From: Patescibacteria group bacterium
GTDB lineage: Bacteria > Patescibacteriota > Patescibacteriia > Magasanikbacterales > UBA922
Assembly (NCBI GenBank): GCA_018823045.1
Contig: JAHJIX010000017.1
Span: 52,300 to 116,299 of the forward strand
Direction of reading: 5' to 3'
Length of the DNA stretch: 64,000 nt
Shown: in pieces, positions 29,261 through 64,000 of the stretch
Numbering within the stretch: position 1 is the first letter of the stretch
Layout of the letters: every line of letters begins with the position of its first letter
Notes under the pieces: model-generated
Told to the model about the DNA's origin: nothing
Seen by the model: the letters and a program-made list of their open reading frames with translations, nothing else
The model's database searches: none
Program-made: the position numbers and the translations under genes

Positions 29261-29264
29261 ATCT

Positions 29265-31296: not shown

Positions 31297-32847
31297 CTCA
31301 ACGGAAGGCAAAGCACCCGAAAGGGTGTTTTTTGCTTTTGTTAAGCTATTTTCTGAAGTTCTAAAGCTTGTATTACGTTTCATTATCATTTCGAACGGTT
31401 TTCTATACTCTATAACTAATTTCTTATCGATAAGCTGACAGTTCGAAAGTAAATATCCAAGTAGCTCCCTTTTCTCTTCATCATTAGCCATACGGTATAA
31501 TTTAGAAGCCTTATGAGCTAATTCTAATATACCTGAACCATAACGATAATAATCAATATCAGCTTGCGTATAATTTGAAATACGACTATCTAAATCTGTT
31601 ACCTGCTCCGTATACTCATTAAATTTTCTATTATAAAAATCCTCAGTAATATTATTATCTAACTTATCCTCATAAAGTCTATCGAGACGTGTCATTAGTT
31701 TTATCTTTCTATCCTCTAATCGTTTACGTTCTCTATCCGTTGTATCACGTTTAATATCCAATGAATCTTTTAATGCTTCGGTAATATAGTCAACGGTATC
31801 TTTTGGCAATTCAATATCTTTTAATGCTTGCTCTATCTGCTCGTTAATAGCATTCTCATTAACTGGCTTTTGTGAACACTCACTCTTATATTTTGTACAA
31901 CGATAATAAACATACTCCTTACCTGAACTCTTTGTTTTCTTATCTCCCGTAACAGTTCTATGACACTCTCCACACTCAAGTAACCCTTTAAATGTAAAGT
32001 GCCTAGTCCCCCATTTGGCTTGCTTTCCTCTATTTTCTCGACTATCCAGTATATCTTGTACATTCTTCCATAATACTTTATTGATAATCGGCTCATGTAC
32101 TCCTACATGAATTTTATCTTTCCAAATGAAATCACCGTAATAAATAGGATTACGTAAAATCCTTTGAACAGAGCTTTTACTTATTTTTTTTAGTTTAGAG
32201 CTTCTCGGAAAATTTTCAGGTATAACAATACCCTCCTTATACAATTCATCAATAAGACTCTTCAAAGAATATCTACCAGTAGCAAATCTCTCAAACATAG
32301 CTATTACTAAATCTCTATTCAATTCATCTACTACAGGACCCGCCTTATCGGCTATCTTCCCCATCTTGTAACCTAACGGGGGCATACTACAAGGATATAT
32401 TCCCTGCTCTGCTTTTTGTTTGAGTCCTTTCTTTACTTCTTCACTCAAATTATCTACATAGTTTTTTGCCATCAAGACCTTAATTCCATGCATGAACTTT
32501 TGATGAGAAGAGGCTTCTTTTCCAATAACTTCATTTTCTTTAACCAAAAAAACCGTAACATCAAGCTCGTCTATCAAAACGTAATCTTTAAAGTTACGGT
32601 ATAGTCTATCCGTCTTTTCGACAAGAATTGTATTTACATCTTTGTGTGACTTTACATAGTCCACCATTGCCCCAAAATTGCTCCTACCGGAACTTTTAGC
32701 CGTCTCATCGTCCTCAAACTCCTGTACTATACTAAAGCCATTCTGACGTGCAAATTCTTTAAGTAACTTCCTCTGAGCAGGTATTGAATACCCCTCTTGT
32801 TTTTGTTCACGAGAAGATACACGTACGTAAATGACGGCTTTTTTCAT
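31258..32847 (-). CDS. Large serine recombinase (resolvase domain + recombinase domain + zinc ribbon)
   Basis: 529 aa. Begins [12 protein letters not shown]…GYSIPAQ (catalytic Ser motif) and has a Cys-rich zinc ribbon (CGECHRTV…[11 protein letters not shown]). The ORF's last ~13 codons overlap tRNA-Asp (31258-31296), so the real stop may differ. Confidence 0.75.
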
Positions 32848-33031: not shown

Positions 33032-33955
33032 TTAAGTAGATAAAACTTTCTCAATTTTTTTTGCTATAGCTCGTATTACAGGTACAGCAACACTATTCCC
33101 AAATTGTTTATAACACTGTACATTACTAACAGTTAATACAAAATCTTTGGGAAATCCTTGTAGTCGAGAAGCTTCTCTTGGAGTAATCTTTCGAGGATTT
33201 TTATTTTTTTGTCTAATCAAAATTTCAGAACCATCTTTATAATACCTAGCTGACATAGTACTTGTATATGCAGAATTGGCATCAAATAGACTATATCCAA
33301 ATCCATTACCCTTTAATTTATGAGCTTCCTTTCTTCTTTTATGACCTGCCCACAATTTATCTGATATTGTATATTTTTCATCAACTTTTTCTTCTAAAAT
33401 ATCTCCTAATTTAACTTTTTTGTATGAAGGAGTTGGAAAAACAAATTCGTTATAATTTTTTACTTTCTTTTTATTAAATGCAATTATATATATTCTCTCT
33501 CTATTTTGAGGTACACCGAAGTCTTTAGCATTAAATATCTTATCAAAAACATGATAATCTAGTTTTTCTAAACTTTCTTTTACTATCTTAAAGGTATTCC
33601 CCTTATCATGTGATTTAAACCCTTTAACATTTTCTAAAAAAACTAGCTCAGGTTTATGATAAGCAATTATTTTTTCAATATAAAAAAACAATGTCCCTCT
33701 AGTATCTTGAAAGCCCTTTTTAAGACCAGCATTAGAAAAAGGCTGACAAGGAAATCCCGCAAGAATTATATTATGTTTAGGTATATCAGCAACCTTAATT
33801 TTAGTTATATCTCCATCGGGACACTCACCAAAGTTATCTTTATATGTTTGTTGAGAAAACTTATCCCACTCAGAAGTAAATACACAGTTATAACCAATTT
33901 CATCAAATGGAATTCTAATTCCACCAATGCCTGCAAATAAATCAATAAATTTCAT
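33032..33955 (-). CDS. DNA (cytosine-5)-methyltransferase
   Basis: Motif I DLFAGIGG, motif IV GFPCQPFS, motif VI ENVKG, motif VIII QNRERIYII. The start is taken at the Met of MKFIDLFAGIGG (the ORF-track frame extends to 34012). Confidence 0.8.
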   Translation of the reverse strand: MKFIDLFAGIGGIRIPFDEIGYNCVFTSEWDKFSQQTYKDNFGECPDGDITKIKVADIPKHNIILAGFPCQPFSNAGLKKGFQDTRGTLFFYIEKIIAYHKPELVFLENVKGFKSHDKGNTFKIVKESLEKLDYHVFDKIFNAKDFGVPQNRERIYIIAFNKKKVKNYNEFVFPTPSYKKVKLGDILEEKVDEKYTISDKLWAGHKRRKEAHKLKGNGFGYSLFDANSAYTSTMSARYYKDGSEILIRQKNKNPRKITPREASRLQGFPKDFVLTVSNVQCYKQFGNSVAVPVIRAIAKKIEKVLST

Positions 33956-33959
33956 ATTT

Positions 33960-34847
33960 TTATTTCCAATAATCAAGATATTTAGGAATTTCTTCAAAGA
34001 AATATTCTTCAAAACTAATTATATTTTTGCAGTCCAACAAACTGTCACTATCTGCCAATTCTTTTGAAGTCACAATAACTATATTATGCATACCCATTTC
34101 TTTTGCTTTACTACCCGCAATATGAGTATCAACCGTTAATAAATGAATTTCAGGTATTTTTGTACGTTCAATTTCTTCTGCTACTTCCTGCCATCTTTCT
34201 CTAAGACTTGTTTTCATCGTCCCTATAATAGTTTTGTTTCTTCTTCGCTTGAATTCTTCTATACTTGGTAAAACAGAATCAACTTTTTTACCAAGTCCCA
34301 CAGACTCAAACACCTTTCTTCCAACTTTTCCTTGAGAATCAAATGGATAATCTAAAATATCATATATTTTATATATAATAGCTTCAAATGTTCTACCTGA
34401 CCTCGATCTTCGTGAATTAGTATTACTTAAAGAAAGCATATATACATATGGAGCAACTCGTCCAGCATATTCTCCACATACACTATAGATAGCAACCTTT
34501 AATTCTTCACCCGTCTTATTAACAATCTCACTAGTAACTAAAAAGTCTAAAATTTTCTTAGGTGTTTCAATTCTTTTATGTAAATCCTTTAAAAGTGTTG
34601 CATTAAACTCTGCCTCCTCTTTCAAAAATAAATTATAAGCACGCTCTCTTACCTCTAATATTACCTTAGACACATCTTTATGCTCTATGATCTCTTTTGA
34701 ATAATTACCTTCATCAAAAACCTGAGCAACAAATTCATCAGATGTTCTTATAGATTCTTTTCTTGTCTTTTTTATTAAATTAGCAAATATTTCCTTCTCT
34801 GATTCAGGAACATCAATCAAACTCCTAATATCCTTATTTACATCCAT
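33960..34847 (-). CDS. Putative type II restriction endonuclease partner of the m5C MTase
   Basis: 295-aa ORF immediately upstream and co-directional with the MTase (gap of a few nt). No recognisable family motif by eye. The call rests on the R-M context only. Confidence 0.4.
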   Translation of the reverse strand: MDVNKDIRSLIDVPESEKEIFANLIKKTRKESIRTSDEFVAQVFDEGNYSKEIIEHKDVSKVILEVRERAYNLFLKEEAEFNATLLKDLHKRIETPKKILDFLVTSEIVNKTGEELKVAIYSVCGEYAGRVAPYVYMLSLSNTNSRRSRSGRTFEAIIYKIYDILDYPFDSQGKVGRKVFESVGLGKKVDSVLPSIEEFKRRRNKTIIGTMKTSLRERWQEVAEEIERTKIPEIHLLTVDTHIAGSKAKEMGMHNIVIVTSKELADSDSLLDCKNIISFEEYFFEEIPKYLDYWK

Positions 34848-34927: not shown

Positions 34928-36016
34928 TCAATCCATCCTTTGAGCTACAAATTTTAAGAGCTCTTCCTTACTCAAAGAAGCAACATTTACTCTAGTAAGG
35001 TTATTAAATGAAATTTCTTGTATTATTCTTGCCTGTTTTAGTGAGTCAATATGTCCATACCCATAACTTCCAAAAGTGGTACCAACATTTTCATGACCCA
35101 AATTTTGACTAAAAGCTTTCTTTTGTATTTCAGTAAGTGGTAATTTAGATATTTCACTCACCAACAAATTTCTAAAGGTATGAGGATGAAAATATGTTAC
35201 TCCTGCCTGCTTAAATCGCTTTTCAAATATCTTTCTCAAAGAAGTAGTACTCTTCCAAAACGTAGCTTCCACTTCCCCATTACTATAAAATCCTAAATTT
35301 TTTTTACCTACTTCTGTTTTTGTTGCAGGGAAAATAGGATCAACAGGTTTAAAACCTTTCTGCACCTCAAGATATTCTACCCATTCCATAAAATACTTTT
35401 GTGCTTTTTTGTATGGAATAGGTACAAAAACGGAAGTTATCCTTTTACTGAACTTTGTTTTTACACCCAACTTAGGATTTTGATCGATAATCATAGTCTT
35501 TTTATCAAAACACTGCAAAGACAAACTAGCTAATGCTGAGATACGTATCCCCGTTAATAAATTAAGAGAAATAAGTGCTTTATCTCGCATTTCAACTTCT
35601 GTATTACCCTCAATATGCTCTATCACCGTTTTTACTTGATCAATTGATGGAAAACTAGTATTAGTGCTTTGTGTAGCTATTCTATTTTCTGCCTTTGTGA
35701 GATTAAGATATTCTACATCTTGCTCATGTACCTTTGATTTATATCCATCTTGTTTAGACAACCACACAAAAAAAGATTTCAAATATCTTATATTATTATA
35801 GCAATAAGATAAACTCACATTACCTTCACCATGTTTCTTTTTTTTTGATTTCAACCAACTTTTGAAATCAATAGCTTTTTGTTTATTAAATAAAGCAAAA
35901 TCATCTTGAACTGAGAACTCTTCCCAAAGCCAAATTCCTTTCTCATAACATCTAATCGATTTTGTTGAATACTGCTTTGCATTTTCAAGATATACATAAA
36001 AACTTCTTATTGTCAA
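34928..36016 (-). CDS. Tyrosine-type site-specific recombinase/integrase
   Basis: 362 aa. Box I R (ALISLNLLTGIRISALASL), HxxR (HPHTFRNLLVS) and the catalytic Tyr region (GHENVGTTFGSYGY). Confidence 0.75.
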   Translation of the reverse strand: MTIRSFYVYLENAKQYSTKSIRCYEKGIWLWEEFSVQDDFALFNKQKAIDFKSWLKSKKKKHGEGNVSLSYCYNNIRYLKSFFVWLSKQDGYKSKVHEQDVEYLNLTKAENRIATQSTNTSFPSIDQVKTVIEHIEGNTEVEMRDKALISLNLLTGIRISALASLSLQCFDKKTMIIDQNPKLGVKTKFSKRITSVFVPIPYKKAQKYFMEWVEYLEVQKGFKPVDPIFPATKTEVGKKNLGFYSNGEVEATFWKSTTSLRKIFEKRFKQAGVTYFHPHTFRNLLVSEISKLPLTEIQKKAFSQNLGHENVGTTFGSYGYGHIDSLKQARIIQEISFNNLTRVNVASLSKEELLKFVAQRMD

Positions 36017-49973: not shown

Positions 49974-50392
49974 AAGAACTTTTTTATATACTGTTCTTGC
50001 AACTGATACATCTGTTGTGCTTCTTTTTCTTTTTGATGGTCATGCCCCAATAAATGAAGGAGGCCATGTACTAACATGCGCATACTTTCTTCACGATACG
50101 ATACATCAAAACGTTTTGCCTGTGCACGAATATATGGTACTGAAATAAAAATATCACCTAAATCTTCTGTTGGTGTAATCCACTCTCCCTCTTGCTGTGC
50201 AAACGATAAAACATCGGTAGAATACTCTTTTCCTCTATATTGTTTATTTAGACGTTTCATTTTTGTATCTCCAATAAAATGCACACTCACATCTCCATGT
50301 ACCTTAGACTGTTTTAATATAAAAGAAACAAGTTCTTTAATTGTCTTTTCTGAAACACCTTTCTTTTTTACTGTTGAATATATACTAATCAT
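49970..50392 (-). CDS. ybeY: rRNA maturation endoribonuclease YbeY
   Basis: 140 aa. HGLLHLLGHDH zinc-binding motif. 4-nt overlap with dgkA. Confidence 0.85.
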   Translation of the reverse strand: MISIYSTVKKKGVSEKTIKELVSFILKQSKVHGDVSVHFIGDTKMKRLNKQYRGKEYSTDVLSFAQQEGEWITPTEDLGDIFISVPYIRAQAKRFDVSYREESMRMLVHGLLHLLGHDHQKEKEAQQMYQLQEQYIKKFL

Positions 50393-51534
50393 AGCGTTGA
50401 AGAAACAGAGCTTGTCACTACAGGTTCGGGAAGAACAGTTTGCTCTGGAATCACAATATTTGTTTTGCTTGGACGAAAACTTTCCAAAAGCATATTCATA
50501 ATATATGGATATGCAACTGTTTTTGTATCTCCAAATTGATATGTGATCACATAAACAAATGACTCTGACGGAACATACGCCACTAATCCATCATTTCTTT
50601 TATATGCCTCTACGGTAAATATATTAGAAAAACGACTGATATCACTATATGACTCCCCCGTTGCATAACGTGCAAACCATGAACGAAAATTTTCTATATC
50701 AGCTAATGGAATTGCTCGAATATCAATATAATCTCCTGTAATACTACTCACTAATACATGCGCTGATTTTGGGTCAACACTTGCAGCATTCCATGACAAT
50801 GGATAATATAAACGATATCCATACTCTGGATTAATATATTCTCGCACCAATCCAGAATCAATTAATTTCATAGGTGCTACACCTTTTGGATTATATAAGT
50901 GTGCAACTTCTTGTCCATCATAATATCCATCTCCATCTGTATCCCAAACAGACAAATCAACGCCAAACACTTCTTCTTCTGCGTCAGTCAGCTCATCATT
51001 ATCTTGATCAGCTCCTTTTGTAAAAAATATATTAGGGAATTGTAAAGGAAGAATAGTTACAATCCCCATATTTGATTCTTCTTTTATGATCGTTGATGTT
51101 GTACTTGTCACAACAATTGGGATCACTTCTTCTTTCACTTCAGGAAGAGTTGAGGAAACAATAGGCACTACAACCTCTTGTTCGGGTACAAATACTTGAG
51201 GAATAACTGTTGCTTGTTGTTTTTTTGCATCAGACAAATAATACCACGTAGCTCCTGTAATAAATATAATAAAAAAAAGTATAAATGCAACAATCCAAGG
51301 CCATTTTTTCTTTGGTCTGTCTTGAGGAATATACTCATATACTGATTTCTTTTTTTCTCTAATATCTTCAGAAAATCGTGCAGGAATAGATTTGTTTTCT
51401 GCCATTTGTTCTTCAGGAGATTTTTTATAAATTTCAGGATTTTTTCCACCATAAAAAGAACTCGGTATTATTTGAATATCTACCGCGTCTTTTTTTTGTT
51501 GTTCTGCTTTTGGTTGTACTAAAGTAGATTTCAT
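50389..51534 (-). CDS. Membrane-anchored hypothetical protein with one EF-hand-like loop (DTDGDGYYDGQE) + GYNPxG motif (paralog 1 of 3)
   Basis: 381 aa. Charged N-terminus, single TM (WIVAFILFFIIFITGATWYYL), then DTDGDGYYDGQEVAHLYNPKG. Confidence 0.5.
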   Translation of the reverse strand: MKSTLVQPKAEQQKKDAVDIQIIPSSFYGGKNPEIYKKSPEEQMAENKSIPARFSEDIREKKKSVYEYIPQDRPKKKWPWIVAFILFFIIFITGATWYYLSDAKKQQATVIPQVFVPEQEVVVPIVSSTLPEVKEEVIPIVVTSTTSTIIKEESNMGIVTILPLQFPNIFFTKGADQDNDELTDAEEEVFGVDLSVWDTDGDGYYDGQEVAHLYNPKGVAPMKLIDSGLVREYINPEYGYRLYYPLSWNAASVDPKSAHVLVSSITGDYIDIRAIPLADIENFRSWFARYATGESYSDISRFSNIFTVEAYKRNDGLVAYVPSESFVYVITYQFGDTKTVAYPYIMNMLLESFRPSKTNIVIPEQTVLPEPVVTSSVSSTL

Positions 51535-51564: not shown

Positions 51565-52776
51565 CTACATACCTTCAGGAATACGTGCACACGCGGCTAA
51601 TTGCTTAGCAATATCTTCTACTACTTTATTATATACTACTAAATCTTCCCATAACTCTGGTTTTTGCAGTAATGTAATGTCTTGTGCAAGTGCTGCAGGA
51701 ATACTATATCCCTGCGCATCTAAATCAAGCATTACTGTTTCAACAGCAAGCAAAATATCTTCACCAGTACACTGACTTAAATCAACACTATTGGTTGGTT
51801 CAGATATGGGTTTTACTTCTAAAATACGTCCAGGTCCAGCAGGATTATATCCATTTTTTACTTCTTGACCATCAAGATAGGTATCGCCATCACTGTCTTG
51901 GACTAATGGATCTGTTTTCCAAATAGTAACTTCATTTCCATCACTTAAATCATCTCCATCAGTATCCCAATTATACGGATCTGTCCGTAGTGTTTCTTCT
52001 CGTAAATCATCAAGCCCATCTTCATCTGAATCAAGTGGCTGACCAAATAAAATATCATTTTCTCTTGTTTTTGTAGTATTAAGTGCATTGTCTTCTACTG
52101 GATTTAATATCTCATCAATAACAGGTGTTGTAAACTCTTCATCTAAAGTAGTGTCTACCAATGGCTCTTGAAATGCAGGAACAACGACGGTTGGCTCAAC
52201 AATAAATGATTGATAAATCCAAAAACCACCACCACCTAAAATAGCAACCACCACCACAATGATAATAGCAGACATAATTCCCCGACTCAGTGCAGGCTCT
52301 TTAATCCGATACAAATCATCTTGTGCTCCTTGTGGAAGTACATCAATTCCTCCGATATCTCCACCGGAAATTTGTCCATCCATATATGATGGTGCTTGAC
52401 CAGTCATCGGTATTTTTTCTTGAATTTGGTGCTGTGTTCTTGCAATTAACGGCTCTTCAAACGTTGTTGGTGGCACTCCTTCCATAGCAGGTGCCACTTG
52501 TGGAATGACTGGCTCTGGTGGCACTGTAGGAGAAACAGGATCAACTGACGGCATTTGATCAACTTGCTTTGGACGCAAAATTCCAGCATCAAGTGCACTT
52601 GGAGGTGCCTGAGGTATTTCTGGTGGAATAGCCCCTGGTACCGCCTGCACTGGCATTTGTGGCACAGCTGGTGTTGCCATAGGGTCCGTTCCCGCAAAAA
52701 TATCTTCAGTGCCATTAGCAATTGGTAAATTTGGTGGGATTTGTCCTAGGGCAACTCCCTGATGATCATCAAACAT
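51565..52776 (-). CDS. Membrane-anchored Pro-rich hypothetical protein with two EF-hand-like loops (paralog 2 of 3)
   Basis: 403 aa. Pro-rich N-terminus, TM (IMSAIIIVVVVAILGGGGFWIY), then DTDGDDLSDGNEV and DSDGDTYLDGQEVKNGYNPAGPG. Confidence 0.5.
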   Translation of the reverse strand: MFDDHQGVALGQIPPNLPIANGTEDIFAGTDPMATPAVPQMPVQAVPGAIPPEIPQAPPSALDAGILRPKQVDQMPSVDPVSPTVPPEPVIPQVAPAMEGVPPTTFEEPLIARTQHQIQEKIPMTGQAPSYMDGQISGGDIGGIDVLPQGAQDDLYRIKEPALSRGIMSAIIIVVVVAILGGGGFWIYQSFIVEPTVVVPAFQEPLVDTTLDEEFTTPVIDEILNPVEDNALNTTKTRENDILFGQPLDSDEDGLDDLREETLRTDPYNWDTDGDDLSDGNEVTIWKTDPLVQDSDGDTYLDGQEVKNGYNPAGPGRILEVKPISEPTNSVDLSQCTGEDILLAVETVMLDLDAQGYSIPAALAQDITLLQKPELWEDLVVYNKVVEDIAKQLAACARIPEGM

Positions 52777-52788
52777 ATAACAATAATT

Positions 52789-53286
52789 TTATTGAACAGG
52801 AATATTTCCTGCGCCATTAGGATTATAGCCTTTTAATATTTCAAAACCGTCAGCAAATCCATCGCCATCTGTATCTCTATTTAATGGATCAGTATTCCAC
52901 ACAGTTATTTCTACTTGATCACTTATCCCATCTCCATCAGTATCAAAATCATCTGATGATGTGCCGAGTCGCTCTTCTTCACTATTTGAAATACCATCTC
53001 GATCAGTATCATCTGGATATAAATCAATACGCTCAACCACTTCTTTTTGTTCTTCTATTATCTGTGGAACATCAGTGTTATCTTTTTCTTTTGAAAGAGA
53101 AGAAAAGACAAGTACTAATAGAACACTCACCAACACAAATATACCGACAAGCAAAAATACTCCCCATTTTCTTTTTTTCGACGGAGGAACAGGAGAAACA
53201 GCCGGCATTTGTGCTTGCCTGTTTTGCGGTTGATATTGTGGTGGCATTTGTTGATATGTTGGTTCCATAATGATGTACGTTATCAT
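52789..53286 (-). CDS. Membrane-anchored hypothetical protein with three EF-hand-like loops (paralog 3 of 3)
   Basis: 165 aa. TM (WGVFLLVGIFVLVSVLLVLVF), then DTDRDGISNSEE, DTDGDGISDQVE, DTDGDGFADGFEILKGYNPNGAGN. Confidence 0.5.
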   Translation of the reverse strand: MITYIIMEPTYQQMPPQYQPQNRQAQMPAVSPVPPSKKRKWGVFLLVGIFVLVSVLLVLVFSSLSKEKDNTDVPQIIEEQKEVVERIDLYPDDTDRDGISNSEEERLGTSSDDFDTDGDGISDQVEITVWNTDPLNRDTDGDGFADGFEILKGYNPNGAGNIPVQ

Positions 53287-53398
53287 GTACGCTATATTTT
53301 TTCACAAATATTTTTATCATTGCACAATCGTGTATCTAGTATACCATAAAACAAGTACACCCGTCATTATATCTTTATAATGACGGATAACTTATTTG

Positions 53399-56300
53399 TT
53401 AATTAATAGGAATAGGATGACGAGGAATATTTCCAAAGATTTGTTTAAGATTTGTTTCAACTGTTCCTATTGGTCGTATATTTTGACCGACTTTACTCAC
53501 ATTAAATACATGCCAATACTTTGCTGCTAAGTTTTCACTTGTATCTACCGATGCACTATCAAAAGTAAATGAATAATCTGGTGTATAGAGTGAGAGTAAA
53601 CCAAGTTGCTCTTTATGATATTCGTACACATCAACACTAATCCCTAAGTCAATAAAATTACCTATAGATAACTCTGCACCATCTGCAGAAATAATACTGA
53701 CAAAGAAAGCATAATGATAATCACTTGAAGTCATATCACCTATACCCAAAGTCATTGCACTGGCAACTGTTTCTTCTAATTCTCCAAATGCATGCATATA
53801 TACTCTATCAGACTGAGGATCACTTTCAAGATGACGTGTATTTGTTAGTTTTAACCATGCACAACTTGCTGCCGGTACCCAATATTCATCTTTTTCTTGT
53901 AAATCTCCACAAATATATGGTTGATCTTGGGTTGCTGACATGACTTGTAGTGCATTTAATGTATGAAATGTACTACTTGCTAATGGATAATTGGTCGTAT
54001 CATCTTGAAATCCATCTTCTGAATACAAATTCGCTAAAACAATAATATCTTCATCAATTTTTGATTTATCATAACGCACTACAATACGATAGACCTCTTC
54101 AGGTACAGCAGGAGAAAGCACAAACTCACGATTAATTACTCCTGCTTGATGAGTTACTGGATATGGGAAGAAGCTTGTATATTTTTCAATCTCATAACCA
54201 TACGTATCTTCATCTACAACAGCACTCTCTTGCCATGGATCACCAATGTTTAAACTATTTATGATACTCTCTCGATTAAATACCACCGCATATTCATCTT
54301 TACATAATGGATAGGTCTTTATTCCTAATTGAAGAGAATCTTCAATCCAGTTTCCATTATCCAAACGTTCTCTTTCGAAAAAGGCATCAAATGGATAATC
54401 ATTATTGTCAGCAAGTAACCATTGTGAATCTGTATATTTTTTATAATTAACACCTTCCCTATATCGATAATCTGGAAATACAGTATCTGAAATATCTTTC
54501 CAAAATGAATTACCTAACAAATCAGGATTTCCTAATTCATCCATATCAAATAATTCTTTTCTTATGGTAGGGCCCCACTGTTCTTCAGCATTCGGAATCC
54601 AAATATTTTCTCCCAAATCAAGTGTTTGATTATCTGTATATGTATCAACAACTGTATACCCATCACCCCCTTTTGTCGCTAAAACATTAAGCACAGATAT
54701 TTTTGGTACCGCTGACTCTGGGTCATTTGTCACCACTCCACATTCAACACAATTATTCACTACTTTTTTACAATCATCTGAACACTCATATGCCCCTTTA
54801 TCTGTACAAATTGCTTCTGCCACAGTTATACCATTTTCTTGGAAGCTTTCTGTCAACCAAGTTTCTGCTGCATCATATTTTTTAATAACAATACCATCTT
54901 GTGTATCACACTCTTCATAAGCTGGATCACCATTTTCGTCTACACCAACTTGATCAGTATCAATAATTCCATTACCGCACCATGCTGTTTGCTCACGGGT
55001 CATGACTCGACAATCAGCACTACAATACTCACAACTTTCACCATATGCAGGGTCACATACGATACCATTTTCTTCTCCTAAATCACAAACTTCGCGGAGA
55101 TTATCTACATTTGGTGATTGCACAACACCATCACCACAAGTTCCTGGTGGCGTTGTTGGTGGTGCTTGTTGGCCATCGTAAACTCCATCACAATATACGG
55201 CAACAAACAAGCTATGCTCTACTTGATTTTCCAAAAAATCTAATCCTAAAAATTCTGTTAAATCAGTTTCACAATCTACTGCACTGTCTCTTCCATAAAA
55301 TATAGTTGTATAATCACAGGTGAGACCATATGCCCTACAAACATCAGCTGCAGTTGTATTTTCATAGCAAGAATCAATTTGAGTATCAAAAAGATAATCA
55401 TCTCCCTCATTATTTATCACCACCATTGTACTCCCCACAGGATTTTCACTAAATGTTGCCTCGGCCTTACAAGCAAAATTTTCTTTCTGACATTCATTAC
55501 TACACCCATCTAAACTCTCTCTATTTCCATCATCACAAGCTTCACCTTCATCATATTGTACTTCTCCATCACCACAATATTCACCGTAATCTTGACAGGT
55601 GTATGAACAAGATTTTTCTTTCTCAAGTGCGTATGAGTTAAATTCATAAATTCTACTTCCTGAACCTTGACTAGAATATACAGAAGCATCACAGAGCTCT
55701 AATAAAGCAAGTGGTTGATCAGGAGAATTTGAAGCTTTATTAATAAATCCATCTTTATTTCTATCTAGATAGTCTTTTTCTATATTCCCACAAAACTGCC
55801 AATGTGGCCCTTTACATGCTTTTACACGATTAGGATCATCACCACCCAAATAATCAGAACAGTGACCATATGTTCCATTTAACTCACCATCATCACATAC
55901 TTCATACCTTTCAATAATACCATTACCACAGTCAAATTCGGGTTCACAACTTCCATACTCAAACTCACAAGTATCAGAACATGTTTTTTGTGCATGATTG
56001 TTATCAAAACAACTACCATTATCAGTTTCTACCACCCATTCAATAAACTTCCCGGGTGGATCACATTGTTCACCACTACTTACAATACCATCACCACAAC
56101 GAGCACCAAAAGGACTGTGCACCTGCTCTGGTTGGCACCAACGAGTATCACTTACATGATCACTATTAATACCAAATACTTCTGACACAATATTATATGA
56201 TGTATCAAAATATTCAAACGGAACATGTAATGTATAATCATCTCCCTGACTTTCATATTCAAAAGTACTCATGCTCACAGGGCAAATAAATTGTGCAACC

Positions 56301-59300
56301 CCTTCATCCCAACAGGTTTGTGCATCGAGCTGTGTACAGGTATTATTTTCTCCCGGGCAATCACTATCTGCAGTACAACTCGTTACTTGTACTGTTTGAC
56401 CACTTGCGACTACTTGTTGTGGTAGCGATTCATTTGGTACACCATCTAAATTATCATCCAGTCGCCACTCCCCATCAAGACAAACCTTATTACTACCATA
56501 TTCTAATCCCCGCACTGCTGTATCCCATATTTCTCCATCAGGACGACAAGAATCATCTTCTGGCATAAATCCACATTCATTTCTTCCACAACACACACCT
56601 ATATCTCCCCCTATTTTACTACATTTTCCTGTTTGACATTCATTATCTTGTGTACACTCACTTTGTCTCGCTAAATCTCCTGTTTCACCTAAAAATTCTT
56701 CTACAGGAACTTCAACTATTTCTGTACAACGACCACAACTACTCCACTGATCAATTGGATCTTTTTGCGTCGTTCCAATGGCAGCACCAAATACATTGCC
56801 CCATGATGGCCAACGACTATTCACATAGTTTGGAATATACGTTCCTGAAGCAAGTGCAGGGTACAAACTATCTCCTGCATAATCTTCTAATTTGTCAACA
56901 ACTGTTCCTGCACGATTTAAACGATCCCAATCACGTAAAAATTTTGTTTTCACATTAGAACACACTCCGTTTGTCCCTTCACGTGGATATCCTTCACTCG
57001 TACGACAATCTAAATCAGTAGAACAAGACACATCAACATCAGCAACAATATTTGCTCGATCATCATGAGGAACACGTCTATTAATTAATGGAATATTTTC
57101 ATCAACATCACTGGCAAGACAATATCCTAAATCACTTAAATTTGTATTAAAGGCAAGAGAAGCTAGTAATTGATCAAAGACGGTTCGTGTACTATCTTGT
57201 GCTCCAGCATTAATACTTAAGAGCATTATATTATTATATACATTACCATTACTTTCATTGAGCACATTTATATAGTAATTATTTCCATCAGTAATGGCAT
57301 CATACCCTGCCACTGAAATTCCTTGCATATCATCAGCACTCCCTGGTAATGTAAATTGATCTAAAAACCAACTCATTGCAGACATACGCTCGGTATTTGA
57401 AAATAATTGCATTCCTATGACATCTTCATTTTGTTCATTAAAGAATAATGTTCTGTAAAGTAAATTTTCACCCATGGCTACATTAAAACTACCTGTATCT
57501 TCTGGTTTACAATCAGGAATACCATTTTGATTTGTATCAATTATAGCAGATAAACCACCTTGAGATAATAACGATTTATCATTACTATTAATAACTCCAT
57601 TACAATCAATGTCTGCTTCATTTACTGTTGATTGCATACATCCTTCCATACCCACAATCATCCATCCATAACATTGAACATCTAGTATCGTTATTTGTCC
57701 ATCATTTGTAATATCTCCATACAAAGAAGTATTACGATCAGCGGTCACCACAGCACGTAAATACGGCAAATCATCTGTCTCAATACCAGACAAACCATCA
57801 TCTGTACAATACCCCATACTAAAATTATAAACATCATTTGTGTATGGATACAATACTCGTTCAGGCCAAGGTCTTTCACAAAAATCAGCAATAAGTTGTG
57901 TCGTCCCACTGATAATATTTCCCTCTTGATCTCCACTACTATCTGCAACAATGGTTACTTGTGCAGCGGCAAATAATTCTCCTTCAATATCTTTTGAGGC
58001 AATCGTTATTTGTGCAGTTTCATCTGTCTCTGGTGGTAATGGAATAGAAAACAATGCATTATTTTCTGGTCCCCAAGACCATACCCAGTCATATGAATCT
58101 GTCGGTTGAATAAATTGTCCAGATGTACTTTCTACTAATGCCTCAAATACTTGTGATTCTGATGGCGTTGTAAAGAGTGCAGTACTTGGTACAACTGAAA
58201 TTTCTTTAATGCGACAAATATCTTCACCTGTGCTAAAAGTAAACACATCATCAGATGGGAAGACTCCTTGTATCTCATTTTTTCCACGAATACTGACTCC
58301 TTCTGCATTCACAATACCTGAAAGACCACCTTGTAATACCACGGCATATGTTTCTGTTGGATCTAAAATATCTGTAAGCTGAACATGAATTTGTGTTTGG
58401 ACTTCGTCGGTATCCACTTCTTCAATATAATTTACTTCTGTTTGTACTCCTGGGACAAGACACCATACTGCCATATCTCCTGCAGCAGCAGAAACATTAT
58501 CGCTAAATAATCCAACAAACCAATCACGAATTGATTGCCAGATTCGTTTAAAAAATCCGACAGGCTCACCTGCTTGTACAAAGAATTGATGGACATCGTT
58601 CGTTACATCTTTTGTCACACAAATATGCTCTTCATCAGTGTACCCTTGCGCAAGTAACACAGAACCTTCAACACTGTCTTCATCAATACGCTCATCAAAT
58701 GTGACAGAAATAGCCACATTTCGACACATCCCAATCGCTTCATCTTCAGGATAGGTATAACTATATGTTGGACGAGGATAACAGCAAGAATTAAATCCAA
58801 CACCCTCTGTATTCCCTTCATTATCAGGGCAATCGTTTACTGTACTTACTGGGACATCTGTATAGGCAACAATACGCACATCATCAATAAATGCAATGCC
58901 CCCTGAATTACTAAATCGAGTTAAAAATGGAGTCCCAGCATTTTCTGGAAGAGTAAATACTCGCTCATAATATACCCAAGAACCATTTGTTAACCCAAGT
59001 ATAGAACCTGCACCTTCAAAATCATTATTTGCACGATTATTTACACCAATAATATGTGATAGGGTTCCAGAATCAATACGATACCAAAATGATACTTGAT
59101 ATGTTTTTCCTGCCTCCATTGCTAAATCTGTTTGATATAGTCCTCCCCCATTTATTGTTTCTCCTAATAACAAACTTCTATTTCCATTATGAAAAACATC
59201 TGTTGTTTTTCTCCAATCAGTATTGCCACCCCAACCACGCCAAAAATCAATATCATCTCTTTCCATGTCACCATCATTGACCAAATTACTCGTATATGCG

Positions 59301-62300
59301 GTTGAAATCCATTCGCTATATCCACACATCAATTGATACGCCCCATCACCATACACATCTTCTTCAATATCAACCAATGTACTATCTGGTAACTCAAGAC
59401 GAAGCGCCCGTGCACGTACACTTGTTTCTTGTACCGGGTCTTCTGCCGCAATATTTTTACCAACGGCAGTAACTACTTGTATTGGATTTTGTCCTAATTG
59501 TGCCCGTGTTTGTGCTGTAACAACTTCACAACCTGCATATTCTCCAATACCGACAACACTATCACCACAAAATGATGATTCATCATAAAGTACAGAAGAA
59601 CCAATTAATTGACATGTTGCATCATAGCACCCCGGTGTTCCTGGTTGACAACGAAGTCCCCCAAGGTCAACACTACGTACAGCTAATCCTAATTCACAAA
59701 TATTTACTGCCAAACAACTATTACTACAATATCTTTCCGGATTTCTATTACGAGGAAGTGTTACTCTTCCATTTTGTCCTGCAAGATAGAGATTTCCATC
59801 AATAACTTCACATGACTCTCCTACTTCAAATATACCATTTCCACAAACACTAAGAGCAGAACTACAGGCACGATAAATTTCATCTGAATCATCTTGATGA
59901 ATACTACACCATACTTGAGATAATGATGTCCCTTCGTGCAAACATTGTGCAGAACATAATTCACTAGATAAATATTTTTGATCTTCTGGAGCACCAGCAT
60001 ATGACAAAGCAATATCACAATCTTCTCCTGTAGTTACTTCTCGACTTCCACACCATGGAACATCTTCCCCTTGTGGTTCTTGTCTTGATGAACCGGTATT
60101 TAAACAAGTATTTGAACAAAAATCACTATCATTATCACATTCTTCTCCAACAGATGCTTCAACAACACCATTTCCACATGATCCAGCCCCATTCCCCACT
60201 TGCTCATTTCCTGGACGAAGACAAGATAAGGTACAACTTGCACCAATAACTTCTTGTGGCAACGCAATATCACAATCTTCTCCTGGACCAACGACTCCAT
60301 CACCACATAAAGATGGTAATCGTGTATAGTCAGCACTAGACACATCACTTCCAGCAAGTAAACAACCAGAAGTACAGTAGGGTTTTTCTTCTACAGCAGA
60401 AGCAAAGTCGCTAATAGTAGCAACGGAAGAATCAAGTACTGACCAATTCCAACCATATTCCCACGGATTTAATTCTTGTCCAATAGGACTACACTCATTT
60501 CTTGCACTGTATGGTAATGATAAATATTTTGTTTTTTCTCCAATATTATTTGCAACAAAAGATACAGGATCGATCCGAATAGAATCAAGAACACAATACC
60601 CATCAACTGATTTTGTTCTAAATTTCCAACTAAACGGAGTAAGCGCTGGTCCTGCTAATGGAAGAGGCTCTGCAAAACGTGCAATAGAATCAATTGCGTC
60701 TGTTGCTTCAACAAGATACCAAGTATTTTCTTCTAAGACCTCTCGTGGATTTGCACGATATATATAATAATTTTCCTGTAGAGCATCCAGAGCTATTTCA
60801 TCAGTAACACGATTAATATCTTCCATTTGACACGCCTCATTGGCACAACGATACAAATGGATGCCGTCATCATACGTATCAGGAATCATTGCGCGATTAA
60901 ACCGAAGTCCAATGACTGCATTCGTACATGATTCTGCACAGTTTGGCCAATTATCAATAACTTTTGGATCTCCAATATTTATGACTAATTCAGATAAAGC
61001 TTGCATTGGTCCAAGTGCATCTTCATTAGATAAGTTCGCTGTAATTTCTACCACATCTGGCGCAGTATGTTCTAAAGCATCAACCACTGCACGAGAGTCA
61101 GTATACACACGACCACCGACATTTCCTGCCTGTAATTGTACCTCTGCACGCAAGTCATTACTTCTCCATTCCCATCCTAAACCATCGGCTGATAATGGTT
61201 GACATACTTTTTCTCCTCGTCCCCACACATTATAATATAATGGATATACAGGATTAAAAATATGTGTACTATCAAAAGCATAACGTGGATCTTGTAGACG
61301 CCCTAAATAACTGGCCGTATGATCGGGTGGTTCAATTGCGGCATGTTGAATTTCGCAAGCACCATTCCCTGTTTTAAATTCAAAACAATACGCTGTTCCA
61401 TCTCCACAAGGACGTGTTGCTTGTAGTGGATATGATTTTTCTTCAATTGCTCCTAAAATTTGTACTTGTTCAAGTGATTGAATACTGTCAGCTAACTCTA
61501 CACGATACCATTGGTTTGGATTTAACAGGATACCATCATGAGGTTCCCAAATATAGAGTGCTGGATGGATATAACTAATAACCGTGTCATTAACTTCTTG
61601 TTTATTTGTACAATCAGGACTTCCATAAAGTTCATCACAAGTAAACATTTTCACAAAATCACTTGTAAGTGTCTCTTCATCCATTCCAACACTAAATTTC
61701 ACAAGAATTGATGCATTTAAACAAGATTCTTGCCCTTGAGGGCGTTGCGCCCAAGGTGCAGGTGATGGCAATGCCATTGCCGCTCCCTCTGTATGCCATT
61801 CTCCTTGTGCACATTCTTCAAGCACACGAGGAAAATTAGGGATAATTCCTGAACTAAATCTCCAGACATACCCAGCGTCTCGTGTTTCTCCTGCACAAAT
61901 AAATCCTTCTTCTTTCCATTGTCCCGCTTCCGTTCCACTTTCACAACAATGATAATTTTCTCCAGGATTCCCATCTCCATCACGACAATCAAGTACAGTG
62001 TAATACACAGGATTACTTAACTTTCCATCAACAACCACTCGGATAGGATTGTCTCCTCGCATGAGCGTTTGTCCTTCATCAGTAAATGGAAGGTATGTTT
62101 TTAACATGTCTCCATCATTATTTGATACTACTCCTGCAAGAATAGCATCACCATTCATCCGTGTTTCATTTGCTGAAGATAACCACGTACTCATGATGTC
62201 ATTAAGATCATCACTTGCTTGTGCGGCTGTATTCCAATAATATACCGTTGGATCATTTGAAATATTTATTCCGTAAATTGCAAGTGGGTCAGCATCTTCT

Positions 62301-64000
62301 GCTAATGGAGCAGTCCCTATTTGTGGGAGTATTGCACAAAGCCCTGGTTGTGGACCACCAGCAATAATATCTAAACGTTCGGTGCTATTTGATAAAAATC
62401 CATCGGCATTACGCACGACTGGATAATATGTCCCTTCTTCTACTTCTGCTGTGTTTGGAATTTTTATAATAATATGATTATTACTCCATGTATCTCCGCA
62501 AAAAGCATGTTCTACTTCTGCCAACACACATGTTTGTGGTGTACACGTTTGCCCAAGTTCTGGATTTGTAGCCAAATAAACAACACCTACGGCTTCCCCA
62601 AACCGTTCTCCACTCACAGTAACAAAACTACCTTTTGTTGTCTCTCTTGGACTAATATCTGTAATGAATGGCGTATGCTCTGCAGCATTTGGGTCAGCAA
62701 TATTTAAAGGATATTGATTACTCACTTCTCCTTCTACTTCTACAAAAACACCAACACGCCCAAAGATACGAGGGACTTCTGTTTGTACCATCGTATTATT
62801 CCAAAAACTAAAACCATTATCACGAGTACCAAACACTATTTTTCGGTCTCCTTCTGTCCCAAAGCCTTTTCCTTGTACTGCAACGGCTATTTCAGGAGCA
62901 GCCGCAGTAATAACTGGCCCAATATTTCCATCAACAATTTCTTTTATGACACAAATACCCGGGCGACTTACATTATTATTTACAAATATTCCTAAGCGTG
63001 GACCTGGTTTTGGTCCATGTGCGTCGGTACTTGTATCTTCAAAAGTAAGATCCATTGCTTTTTGTACACGAATACGTGCTGGAGTTCCTTGTGGCAATGC
63101 TGCCGGCACACTCACGATAATCCAATTATCTCTCCATAAATCATTTCCTAAACATTCCTCAGGTAAAAATGCTTCATAGCTTTGAAGAACAACACCGCTA
63201 TCATTTACTGTATCAAAAAATACACGTCCAACATCTTCTCCAAAAAACTTTCCTTCAATAGTTACTAAATTACCACTTGCACCATCCCAAGAATTTGGGG
63301 TCATCCCAGTAATCATTGGCCATACAATACATTGATTATCCACACAACGATTTGACGCGCACTCCCAATCTTCAGTACAAGCACCCATACCTAAACATGA
63401 ACCACCAATATCAACTCCTGTCTCATCTCCATCTTGAATACCATTTGAACATGTTTCTCCAACCAATACAAAATGACTTTCTTTTACTTCTTGATTTGAA
63501 TCAATATCAGTAGCAGTCATCACAACCGTATATCGCGCAGGGACAGGAATACCTACCCCAAGTGGAAATTGATACAATATGTCTATCGCATTTTTAGCAG
63601 CATCAATGTCTACCCGTGGTGCATTATAGCGAAATACTTCATCATCACCGCCATCACGAAATACATGTGTTTCGACGAGTGATACTCCTCCTTGATCATT
63701 TTTACGATCTTTTACAACACTCTGCACAGAAAAATTTTGTCCTCGCTGTAATATAATTCCATTAACACCCGCTACTTCTTCTGTTTTCCCATCAATTTCA
63801 ATTGCATCTATTGTTGGTTTTACTTGATCTAGTTGATCTTTATTATTTTGAAATTTACTCTTTGCTTTAAAGACACCACACACCGTATCTGTTTGTAAAA
63901 CTTGTCCAAAATTATCTTCTAATAGTTCATTTACATCTACGATATACGTATCTACTGGCAAACAAGACTCATGCTGATTGTTTTGACAAACGGCAGTATC
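53399..64000 (-). CDS. Giant (>3530 aa) Cys-rich surface protein with Myxococcus-type cysteine-rich repeats (CGDG…E-CDDGN). 5' end beyond window.
   Basis: The ORF-track frame starts at a TTG at 63961, but the frame remains open to 64000 (…DTAVCQNNQHESCLPVDTY…). Multiple CGDGVV…GE-CD/ CGNGII…CDDGELNG repeats and DTDGDG motifs. No internal stops over 10.6 kb. Confidence 0.8.
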   Translation of the reverse strand, partial: DTAVCQNNQHESCLPVDTYIVDVNELLEDNFGQVLQTDTVCGVFKAKSKFQNNKDQLDQVKPTIDAIEIDGKTEEVAGVNGIILQRGQNFSVQSVVKDRKNDQGGVSLVETHVFRDGGDDEVFRYNAPRVDIDAAKNAIDILYQFPLGVGIPVPARYTVVMTATDIDSNQEVKESHFVLVGETCSNGIQDGDETGVDIGGSCLGMGACTEDWECASNRCVDNQCIVWPMITGMTPNSWDGASGNLVTIEGKFFGEDVGRVFFDTVNDSGVVLQSYEAFLPEECLGNDLWRDNWIIVSVPAALPQGTPARIRVQKAMDLTFEDTSTDAHGPKPGPRLGIFVNNNVSRPGICVIKEIVDGNIGPVITAAAPEIAVAVQGKGFGTEGDRKIVFGTRDNGFSFWNNTMVQTEVPRIFGRVGVFVEVEGEVSNQYPLNIADPNAAEHTPFITDISPRETTKGSFVTVSGERFGEAVGVVYLATNPELGQTCTPQTCVLAEVEHAFCGDTWSNNHIIIKIPNTAEVEEGTYYPVVRNADGFLSNSTERLDIIAGGPQPGLCAILPQIGTAPLAEDADPLAIYGINISNDPTVYYWNTAAQASDDLNDIMSTWLSSANETRMNGDAILAGVVSNNDGDMLKTYLPFTDEGQTLMRGDNPIRVVVDGKLSNPVYYTVLDCRDGDGNPGENYHCCESGTEAGQWKEEGFICAGETRDAGYVWRFSSGIIPNFPRVLEECAQGEWHTEGAAMALPSPAPWAQRPQGQESCLNASILVKFSVGMDEETLTSDFVKMFTCDELYGSPDCTNKQEVNDTVISYIHPALYIWEPHDGILLNPNQWYRVELADSIQSLEQVQILGAIEEKSYPLQATRPCGDGTAYCFEFKTGNGACEIQHAAIEPPDHTASYLGRLQDPRYAFDSTHIFNPVYPLYYNVWGRGEKVCQPLSADGLGWEWRSNDLRAEVQLQAGNVGGRVYTDSRAVVDALEHTAPDVVEITANLSNEDALGPMQALSELVINIGDPKVIDNWPNCAESCTNAVIGLRFNRAMIPDTYDDGIHLYRCANEACQMEDINRVTDEIALDALQENYYIYRANPREVLEENTWYLVEATDAIDSIARFAEPLPLAGPALTPFSWKFRTKSVDGYCVLDSIRIDPVSFVANNIGEKTKYLSLPYSARNECSPIGQELNPWEYGWNWSVLDSSVATISDFASAVEEKPYCTSGCLLAGSDVSSADYTRLPSLCGDGVVGPGEDCDIALPQEVIGASCTLSCLRPGNEQVGNGAGSCGNGVVEASVGEECDNDSDFCSNTCLNTGSSRQEPQGEDVPWCGSREVTTGEDCDIALSYAGAPEDQKYLSSELCSAQCLHEGTSLSQVWCSIHQDDSDEIYRACSSALSVCGNGIFEVGESCEVIDGNLYLAGQNGRVTLPRNRNPERYCSNSCLAVNICELGLAVRSVDLGGLRCQPGTPGCYDATCQLIGSSVLYDESSFCGDSVVGIGEYAGCEVVTAQTRAQLGQNPIQVVTAVGKNIAAEDPVQETSVRARALRLELPDSTLVDIEEDVYGDGAYQLMCGYSEWISTAYTSNLVNDGDMERDDIDFWRGWGGNTDWRKTTDVFHNGNRSLLLGETINGGGLYQTDLAMEAGKTYQVSFWYRIDSGTLSHIIGVNNRANNDFEGAGSILGLTNGSWVYYERVFTLPENAGTPFLTRFSNSGGIAFIDDVRIVAYTDVPVSTVNDCPDNEGNTEGVGFNSCCYPRPTYSYTYPEDEAIGMCRNVAISVTFDERIDEDSVEGSVLLAQGYTDEEHICVTKDVTNDVHQFFVQAGEPVGFFKRIWQSIRDWFVGLFSDNVSAAAGDMAVWCLVPGVQTEVNYIEEVDTDEVQTQIHVQLTDILDPTETYAVVLQGGLSGIVNAEGVSIRGKNEIQGVFPSDDVFTFSTGEDICRIKEISVVPSTALFTTPSESQVFEALVESTSGQFIQPTDSYDWVWSWGPENNALFSIPLPPETDETAQITIASKDIEGELFAAAQVTIVADSSGDQEGNIISGTTQLIADFCERPWPERVLYPYTNDVYNFSMGYCTDDGLSGIETDDLPYLRAVVTADRNTSLYGDITNDGQITILDVQCYGWMIVGMEGCMQSTVNEADIDCNGVINSNDKSLLSQGGLSAIIDTNQNGIPDCKPEDTGSFNVAMGENLLYRTLFFNEQNEDVIGMQLFSNTERMSAMSWFLDQFTLPGSADDMQGISVAGYDAITDGNNYYINVLNESNGNVYNNIMLLSINAGAQDSTRTVFDQLLASLAFNTNLSDLGYCLASDVDENIPLINRRVPHDDRANIVADVDVSCSTDLDCRTSEGYPREGTNGVCSNVKTKFLRDWDRLNRAGTVVDKLEDYAGDSLYPALASGTYIPNYVNSRWPSWGNVFGAAIGTTQKDPIDQWSSCGRCTEIVEVPVEEFLGETGDLARQSECTQDNECQTGKCSKIGGDIGVCCGRNECGFMPEDDSCRPDGEIWDTAVRGLEYGSNKVCLDGEWRLDDNLDGVPNESLPQQVVASGQTVQVTSCTADSDCPGENNTCTQLDAQTCWDEGVAQFICPVSMSTFEYESQGDDYTLHVPFEYFDTSYNIVSEVFGINSDHVSDTRWCQPEQVHSPFGARCGDGIVSSGEQCDPPGKFIEWVVETDNGSCFDNNHAQKTCSDTCEFEYGSCEPEFDCGNGIIERYEVCDDGELNGTYGHCSDYLGGDDPNRVKACKGPHWQFCGNIEKDYLDRNKDGFINKASNSPDQPLALLELCDASVYSSQGSGSRIYEFNSYALEKEKSCSYTCQDYGEYCGDGEVQYDEGEACDDGNRESLDGCSNECQKENFACKAEATFSENPVGSTMVVINNEGDDYLFDTQIDSCYENTTAADVCRAYGLTCDYTTIFYGRDSAVDCETDLTEFLGLDFLENQVEHSLFVAVYCDGVYDGQQAPPTTPPGTCGDGVVQSPNVDNLREVCDLGEENGIVCDPAYGESCEYCSADCRVMTREQTAWCGNGIIDTDQVGVDENGDPAYEECDTQDGIVIKKYDAAETWLTESFQENGITVAEAICTDKGAYECSDDCKKVVNNCVECGVVTNDPESAVPKISVLNVLATKGGDGYTVVDTYTDNQTLDLGENIWIPNAEEQWGPTIRKELFDMDELGNPDLLGNSFWKDISDTVFPDYRYREGVNYKKYTDSQWLLADNNDYPFDAFFERERLDNGNWIEDSLQLGIKTYPLCKDEYAVVFNRESIINSLNIGDPWQESAVVDEDTYGYEIEKYTSFFPYPVTHQAGVINREFVLSPAVPEEVYRIVVRYDKSKIDEDIIVLANLYSEDGFQDDTTNYPLASSTFHTLNALQVMSATQDQPYICGDLQEKDEYWVPAASCAWLKLTNTRHLESDPQSDRVYMHAFGELEETVASAMTLGIGDMTSSDYHYAFFVSIISADGAELSIGNFIDLGISVDVYEYHKEQLGLLSLYTPDYSFTFDSASVDTSENLAAKYWHVFNVSKVGQNIRPIGTVETNLKQIFGNIPRHPIPIN

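Follow-up and report, generated by a model that had tools for sequence, protein, structure and literature searches.

Reading frame of the giant gene

The window analysed here, a stretch of 64,000 nucleotides from a Patescibacteria group bacterium (contig JAHJIX010000017.1 of assembly GCA_018823045.1, positions 52,300 to 116,299), ends inside a giant gene, which is the subject of this report. On the minus strand, a frame of 3,533 sense codons stays open from the window edge at 64000 down to a TAA stop codon at 53399..53401. Judged from the open frame and from its identity to a full-length product, the in-window coding part (53402..64000, minus strand) comprises codons 232-3764 of a gene of 3,764 codons. 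An earlier note on this DNA had described a frame of more than 3,530 amino acids (aa) that reaches the window edge with no stop and is still open above the first in-window start codon. Both observations hold, as the 13 codons upstream of the TTG at 63961 are all sense codons. That TTG is merely the first start-like codon in the window, and we rejected it as the start of the gene as an edge artefact.

An exhaustive HMMER search of protein representatives, with in-window aa 1-1200 as query, recovered the full-length product, P0010 (MBU0660911.1), which is deposited as 'carbohydrate binding domain-containing protein [Patescibacteria group bacterium]'. From residue 232 to residue 3764, P0010 is 100% identical to the window translation, and its numbering is the in-window numbering plus 231. 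The gene is annotated as a 3,764-aa product on contig JAHJAC010000010.1 from the Patescibacteria metagenome-assembled genome (MAG) GCA_018814165.1, which showed no mismatches to the window over the stretches of 20.5 and 21.3 kb that were compared. The gene does run past the window edge, as the earlier note had expected, but by only 231 codons (693 nt); these lie beyond window position 64000 and encode a signal peptide and a pilin-like hairpin of Pfam family PF18895. An in-frame TAA, which is also the stop of the preceding gene, closes the frame 9 nt upstream of the ATG. Extension of the contig by a related-locus search of genome and metagenome contigs, with in-window aa 1-400 as query, gave no match.

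A long open reading frame (ORF) of this kind might be an assembly artefact or a decaying pseudogene, and MAG contigs may in principle be chimeric, although we found no other support for this explanation. The same 3,764-aa product is present in three NCBI MAGs and in one independent Logan assembly, the assemblies differ by only 6 mismatches over 17.8 kb, and hundreds of full-length homologues share a common architecture. We regard an artefact or pseudogene as hardly credible; the independent identical copies and the homologue family effectively refute it.

Pilin-like N-terminus and domain mosaic

P0010 starts with MPYRKIFLTLLLTLCIGVFVSVFPQSVSA, a classical Sec signal with n, h and c regions and V-x-A at positions -3/-1, followed by QD after the predicted cleavage site. 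Of 38 homologues, at least 90% retain the 'AQ' at this site. The earlier note had proposed a search for a signal peptide at the distant N-terminus, and had taken closure of the frame shortly past the window edge, together with the lack of a signal peptide, as a sign against its reading; the frame does close 231 codons past the edge, but the signal peptide is present. By rule-based assignment, hydropathy segments lie at P0010 residues 6-24, 49-67 and 89-107, and the loop that joins the helices, TAGGQEDKIAQAKK, is short and Lys-rich. A Gly/Asp-rich linker stands between helix 2 and the ectodomain.

The family PF18895 (T4SS_pilin) matches P0010 aa 53-116 at 39.4-41.1 bits, against a cutoff of 26.6. 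It was found in all 38 sampled N-termini of the family, 3 of which also match PF04956 (TrbC/VirB2), and 9 positions of the module are invariant and 15 near-invariant across these 38 sequences. The first 135 aa of P0010 match 110 proteins, almost all of them 95-221 aa long and almost all with PF18895. Identity to stand-alone PF18895 pilins of 110-140 aa reaches 61% (E 2.7e-29). The names 'pilin' and 'type IV secretion system pilin' are given to some of the stand-alone matches, whose sources are Patescibacteria, Magasanikbacteria, Parcubacteria and Uhrbacteria. On these sequence comparisons, the likeness of the giant N-terminus to PF18895 is one of true homology and not of mere hydrophobicity. 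A hidden Markov model of the module found no further copy in the 64-kb window.

Like the stand-alone VirB2-like pilins of PF18895, the giant has a Sec signal, two transmembrane (TM) helices and a Lys-rich loop within its N-terminal 130 aa, and by sequence and predicted topology this module is a member of the family. The chain of a stand-alone pilin ends after helix 2, whereas that of the giant continues for ~3,600 aa. Type IV secretion system (T4SS) pilins are hairpin-only proteins of ~100-140 aa. The whole giant protein, at 3,764 aa, has neither their small size nor their linkage to T4SS genes, as it is not adjacent to virB4 or any other gene of such a system.

In VirB2, the loop is cytoplasmic and both ends lie outside. 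The positive-inside rule and the VirB2 analogy together suggest the same topology for the hairpin of the giant, with its loop inside and its ends outside, and the ~3,600 residues after helix 2 would therefore be extracellular. No TM-like segment was found in the 3,533 in-window aa (maximum 19-aa Kyte-Doolittle mean 1.28) or elsewhere after P0010 residue 107, and the C-terminus, which ends in …KQIFGNIPRHPIPIN, has no LPXTG motif and no hydrophobic anchor. The protein thus combines a Sec signal, a VirB2-type (PF18895) hairpin, a Gly/Asp linker and a TM-free ectodomain. Its pilin module, together with the gene cassette described below, is what sets it apart, and the earlier note missed this feature because it lies past the window edge. 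We are confident that it is an exported, membrane-anchored giant surface protein, which agrees with the extracellular location given in the earlier note.

The remaining ~3,600-aa ectodomain contains binding and structural modules only, all on the minus strand and numbered here by in-window residues. The best-scoring IPT/TIG Ig-like segment is at aa 444-533 (62402..62671; Pfam PF01833, 33.4 bits against a cutoff of 20.9), and several further TIG-like segments were recognised by eye at aa ~230-650. A CBM_4_9 carbohydrate-binding module follows at aa 1571-1687 (58940..59290; PF02018, 1.3e-11, 45.4 bits against 25.9), then a Big_5 bacterial Ig-like domain at aa 1744-1796 (58613..58771; PF13205, 3.9e-12, 47.3 bits) and a type I dockerin, a Ca-binding module, at aa 2094-2146 (57563..57721; PF00404, 25.4 bits against a cutoff of 22.9). 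Two conserved segments without annotation were modelled from family alignments. The middle segment, conserved across the family, spans aa 2165-2429 (56714..57508) and consists of an alpha/beta domain like those of PsbP, Mog1, DcrB and LpqN, a small Cys knot and a long helix. The C-terminal ~480 aa (53402..54850) form a Cys-poor, beta-rich domain whose core is a TerD-like beta-sandwich; FPYPV…SPAVP…RVVVRW and KYWHVFN are its conserved motifs. Searches of Pfam, NCBIfam and PDB sequences found no catalytic family or fold in the giant protein, and no PDB chain matched by sequence either the whole protein or the middle-domain profile.

The Myxococcus-type cysteine-rich repeats reported in the earlier note do occur. 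In the in-window giant ORF, the pattern CG[DNS][GSR]…E..C[DE] has 10 occurrences, where 2,000 shuffles gave 0.02 on average and never more than 1, and the pattern CG[DN]G[IVFE][IVFL] has 8, against 0.0075 expected from shuffles. A closing C-x2-3-C in 8 of the 10 units yields the four-Cys acidic unit of TIGR02232. This NCBIfam model passes its cutoff (31.3 bits against 20.8) in 3 stretches, with its best match at aa 2807-2844. Of the domain annotation that the earlier note had proposed as a check, TIGR02232 is therefore borne out, but Pfam DUF4215 stays below threshold (17.1 against 27) and DUF11 is absent from the Pfam scan of the ORF. The units form two clusters of five, identified by regular expression with shuffle control: cluster 1 at aa 1232-1492 (59525..60307, minus strand), in which the units take the form CG[DNS][GSR]…E-x-C-[DE]…C-x2-3-C, and cluster 2 at aa 2635-3077 (54770..56098, minus strand), which is also supported by TIGR02232. 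The region of cluster 1 is alignable in ~100% of 115 homologues.

The earlier note had, however, overstated the part played by these repeats. It had written of 'dozens' of units where we count ten, and of DTDGDG loops, for which the giant ORF gave no match (DTDGDG or D.D.DG); such motifs belong to three TSP3_bac genes downstream. Nor is the protein 'built from' the repeats, which total 345 aa, or 9.8% of the 3,533 in-window residues, in what is largely a non-repetitive multidomain mosaic. BLASTP of the protein against itself gave nothing at E<=0.01, the DNA of the gene holds no tandem repeats, and on both grounds we rejected the idea of a highly repetitive protein. The giant resembles TIGR02232/DUF4215 proteins in its ten four-Cys acidic units (C-G-D-G-x-V…G-E-x-C-D-D-G-N…C-x3-C). 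It differs from them in that the repeats are a minor component (~10%), many with long insertions, and in its sub-threshold DUF4215 score. The protein thus contains bona fide TIGR02232-type repeats, and two members of its family carry the JGI label 'cysteine-rich repeat protein'.

Homologue family and gene cassette

Searched against representatives of 50%-identity clusters, in-window aa 1-1200 match 702 at a threshold of E<=1e-3, of which 571 also pass E<=1e-10 and 392 pass E<=1e-30. Of the 150 best matches, 113 start with Met and are longer than 3,000 aa, with a median length of 3,771 aa and a range of 3,052-5,289 aa. Nearly all of these full-length homologues (106 of 113) have three N-terminal hydrophobic segments as in P0010, and they contain 6-14 Cys-rich units each (median 10). 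The C-terminal domain is detectable at the extreme C-terminus in 89 of 167 proteins. In a BLASTP coverage profile, P0010 is alignable over nearly its whole length in 80-100% of 115 homologues. Three insert sites break this pattern: P0010 aa 1801-1950 with the CBM_4_9 module (aligned in 10-15% of homologues), aa 2301-2400 with the dockerin (35-58%) and aa 2651-2800 with Cys knots (6-43%). A softer dip lies at aa 3050-3200. The CBM_4_9 and dockerin modules are therefore lineage-specific inserts at fixed positions of a conserved scaffold. The binding modules of relatives differ: P0100 has PSII_BNR/sortilin, P0061 has Laminin_G_3, and P0141 has FG-GAP with Laminin_G_3.

The named homologues amount to five records in three clusters, all from Candidatus Magasanikbacteria, a group that NCBI taxonomy lists as Ca. 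Magasanikiibacteriota, in the Parcubacteria group of the Patescibacteria group. A profile search for named relatives gave no match at E<=1e-10, and the taxonomic range accordingly rests on these five records. Neighbouring proteins of the window are deposited as 'Patescibacteria group bacterium'. The carrier is thus a Patescibacteria bacterium related to Magasanikiibacteriota, and the earlier note was right to expect a reduced-genome bacterium, here a member of the candidate phyla radiation (CPR). A word-indexed homologue search with the C-terminal 483 aa returned only 3 distant matches and failed to return the window's own giant. As it missed both the giant and the family found by exhaustive search, its negatives do not mean absence. 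The family is not described in any paper that turned up in literature searches on it, on TIGR02232/DUF4215 or on giant Cys-rich proteins of CPR bacteria. The family is large, conserved and uncharacterised, with several hundred members of 3-5 thousand aa (kaa) in the Magasanikiibacteriota branch.

The same gene order was found in four loci (L004, L006, L007 and L008), the other three giants being ~31-39% identical to P0010. The upstream block consists of signal peptidase I, HisRS, a small ORF and YqeY, followed in the P0010 genome by NUDIX and acetyltransferase genes. It is seen in only three loci because L008 starts at a contig end, just upstream of the partner gene described below. The core consists of a 675-751-aa protein with PF18895 and Big_5, the giant, and two or three small genes, of which one or more are TSP3_bac genes. 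YbeY, DagK, FtsA, FtsZ and NrdR follow downstream (ybeY, dgkA, ftsA, ftsZ). The signal peptidase I (Peptidase_S26) gene lies upstream of the cassette in L004, L006 and L007 (e.g., L004 4023-4622). Both proteins with a pilin module are predicted substrates of this peptidase, though the linkage may be incidental.

The partner gene (L004 7967-9994, plus strand, outside the window) encodes 675 aa with a signal peptide, PF18895 and three Big_5-like domains, and ends 6 nt before the ATG of the giant (L004 10001). Its pilin module is 64% identical to that of the giant over 137 aa (E 3e-40), and there is no other significant similarity between the two proteins. Across the four genomes, partner and giant modules are 57-68% identical within a genome, against 41-57% between genomes, which points to gene conversion (concerted evolution) or co-evolution.

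Downstream of the giant, a terminator-like hairpin with a 14-bp stem and a T-rich tail (53358..53389, minus strand) begins 10 nt after the stop codon and overlaps a promoter-like site for the next gene (53367..53338, minus strand). That gene (52789..53286, minus strand) encodes a 165-aa single-pass membrane protein with TSP3 repeats (Pfam PF18884, 5.4e-17), and a TSP3_bac gene stands directly 3' of the giant in all four loci. The protein encoded by the second downstream gene (51565..52776, minus strand) has 403 aa, is Pro-rich at its N-terminus and carries a single TM segment and TSP3 repeats; that of the third (50389..51534, minus strand) is a single-pass membrane protein of 381 aa in which one TSP3 repeat scores below threshold. 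In all three proteins (50389-53286), the N-terminus, which is Pro/Gln-rich in the first two, is predicted to be cytoplasmic and the Ca-binding TSP3 repeats of DTDGDG type (DxDxDG) to be extracellular. The giant is thus the large subunit of a conserved cassette, together with a partner whose pilin module co-evolves with its own and two or three TSP3 membrane proteins.

Elsewhere in the window, a GC-rich island at 12000-16000 (0.49-0.55, against 0.31-0.40 in the rest) holds the gene for a 639-aa thrombospondin type 3 repeat protein (12886-14805, minus strand; PF02412, 1.4e-38) with a 108-nt tandem repeat at 13989-14261. Two further ORFs of the island, at 14883..15677 and 16027..17004, have no Pfam matches. 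Either Asp/Gly codon composition or foreign origin could account for the GC content. The region 23700-36100 looks like an integrated mobile element with a restriction-modification system: a tmRNA (28343-28763, plus strand) and a tRNA (31223-31296, plus strand) adjoin a serine recombinase (31258..32847, minus strand), and the same region encodes a C5 DNA methylase (33032..34012), an EcoRII-C-like endonuclease (33960..34847), a tyrosine integrase (34928..36016) and a KilA-N protein (23724..24104). A second large ORF of 1,779 aa (17228-22567, minus strand) matches no Pfam family at E<=0.001. An envelope and glycan gene cluster at 2072-12451 (minus strand) includes a HlyD-like membrane-fusion protein, two GT4 glycosyltransferases, a GHL15 and FG-GAP protein, a radical SAM enzyme and a Wzy_C O-antigen-ligase-like protein.

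Possible roles of the giant protein

We lean towards the view that the giant is a membrane-tethered fibrillar adhesin, a reading of its sequence that we consider probable, if by no means secure. The protein would be exported by the Sec pathway and cleaved by signal peptidase after Ala29, and its hairpin would stay in the cytoplasmic membrane as in VirB2, with the Lys-rich loop inside and both ends outside. With this topology, the whole ectodomain would project from the cell as a long fibril. Several dozen modules of ~100 aa make an extended length well over 100 nm plausible, and the fibril could be stiffened by the disulfides of the Cys-rich repeats and by Ca2+ bound to the dockerin, the TerD-like domain and the TSP3 partners. 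Through its variable inserts, here CBM_4_9 and dockerin, the fibril may attach to glycans or proteins on the surface of a partner cell or of a substrate, and the giant may pair in the membrane with its 675-aa neighbour by way of the shared, co-evolving pilin modules. Host attachment is a plausible role for a protein with binding modules only and no catalytic domain found.

Known giant fibrillar adhesins (LapA, SiiE, MpIBP and LPXTG-anchored types) resemble the giant in their multi-kiloresidue size, strings of Ig-like domains, Ca-binding elements and ligand-binding modules inserted in a stalk without catalytic domains. The stalk of the giant differs in having no near-identical tandem repeats, and its anchor is an N-terminal pilin-like hairpin. 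Adhesins of the RTX type, exported by type I secretion systems (T1SS), differ in that the giant has no RTX repeats (no Pfam match to RTX or HemolysinCabind) and no T1SS signal but N-terminal Sec export. We rejected this class because of the missing repeats and because the HlyD-like gene (2072..3841) is 50 kb away. An LPXTG-anchored adhesin was likewise ruled out, as the giant has neither a C-terminal LPXTG nor a C-terminal hydrophobic or TM segment.

Several points weigh against an adhesin. We infer adhesion and its target from domain content, and large parts of the ectodomain are without any fold match. The most 'adhesin-like' matches, CBM_4_9 and dockerin, are the least conserved parts of the protein and so do not explain its conserved core. 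Signal-peptide cleavage and topology were predicted by rule and not by a dedicated predictor. The pilin module is conserved far beyond the needs of a mere anchor, which hints at a specific interaction besides tethering. Strict syntenic conservation in the core genome by ftsA/ftsZ fits a housekeeping envelope role as well as, or better than, it fits a host-specific adhesin.

The conservation of the pilin module, and its high identity to free-standing CPR pilins, would be accounted for if the module were functional, with the giant and its 675-aa neighbour acting as minor, tip or base subunits of a VirB2-type pilus. They would be extracted from the membrane and joined with the small PF18895 pilins of the genome, and the 3.6-kaa ectodomain would be a displayed adhesin. 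Co-evolution of adjacent modules is as expected of subunits that pack together. In the solved conjugative pili (F and T pilus), the C-terminus of the VirB2-type pilin faces outside, and by this analogy a C-terminal fusion would be topologically permitted. However, no T4SS gene (VirB4, VirB6, VirB3 and others) was found within 8-10 kb at the four loci or among the ORFs scanned in the 64-kb window, and the reading presupposes that CPR PF18895 proteins form pili in the first place. Every subunit of a helical pilus could not carry an appendage of 3.6 kaa, and a special low-copy role must therefore be assumed. We know of no characterised VirB2-type pilin with a large fused module. Quinonero-Coronel et al. 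reported that VirB2-like pilins are abundant in CPR (1,948 assemblies) and that T4SS occur in Magasanikiibacteriota, whereas an adhesin of the PrgB kind was not found (10.1101/2025.01.22.634366), a gap that would suit such a displayed adhesin. PrgB-type adhesins of Gram-positive conjugative T4SS might be functional analogues, as surface adhesins that accompany a monoderm-type T4SS, but we detected no sequence or architectural similarity to the giant, and the giant is not linked to T4SS genes. The nearest conceptual analogues are the modular type IV pilins, such as PilB of Streptococcus sanguinis (PMC8179133), in which a pilin module is likewise fused to an adhesive C-terminal module. This is an analogy only: their pilin superfamily is unrelated, their signal peptide is of class III and their N-terminus forms a single helix, where the giant has a Sec signal for signal peptidase I and a VirB2 hairpin, and the fused module of the giant is an order of magnitude larger. 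On balance, we consider pilus subunits of this kind possible but rather doubtful.

Alternatively, the cassette may build a housekeeping surface layer or envelope scaffold (S-layer-like or spanning the cell wall) that serves shape or division. The syntenic core position directly upstream of ybeY-dgkA-ftsA-ftsZ in four divergent genomes favours this, as do the end-to-end alignment across the 115 homologues and the Ca-binding TSP3 membrane proteins alongside. We nevertheless think it unlikely: swapped ligand-binding inserts (CBM, Laminin_G, FG-GAP, BNR) are typical of adhesins and not of lattice proteins, Pfam and NCBIfam gave no match to an S-layer-homology domain or known S-layer family, and the proximity to fts genes may be incidental. 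The CBM_4_9 and dockerin scores, both above cutoff, together with the NCBI name of the protein, would also fit a cellulosome-like scaffold for nutrient acquisition, with CBM_4_9 as its hold on polysaccharide and the dockerin as the docking point for enzymes that bear cohesins. Yet the dockerin score is barely above its cutoff, both modules are lineage-specific inserts missing in most homologues, and no glycoside hydrolase or cohesin was found in the giant or its cassette neighbours. We therefore ruled against a cellulosomal scaffoldin, which appears very improbable.

To our knowledge, all cultivated Patescibacteria live attached to other microbes, and the molecules that recognise and hold their hosts are largely unknown. 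In the one cultivated species tested genetically, T4SS and pilin arrays were essential and no adhesin was assigned (10.1101/2025.01.22.634366). With its pilin-derived tether, a partner with a co-evolving module and swappable ligand-binding inserts, the family described here offers concrete candidates for recognition of a host or substrate, and it can be sought by a simple bioinformatic handle, PF18895 followed by a protein of more than 3 kaa. What appears to be new is a type of giant surface adhesin whose module for anchoring or assembly derives from VirB2. There is also some chance, which we put forward tentatively, that the first 'modular VirB2-type pilins', with a T4SS pilin module joined to adhesin ectodomains, have come to light in the giant and its 675-aa neighbour, which would be loaded onto a T4SS pilus of Patescibacteria or nucleate it. 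If so, they would supply the adhesin reported missing for CPR T4SS and represent a new way to arm a T4SS-type pilus. Host recognition would then be physically coupled to a secretion or uptake machine, and the variable inserts would be determinants of host range.

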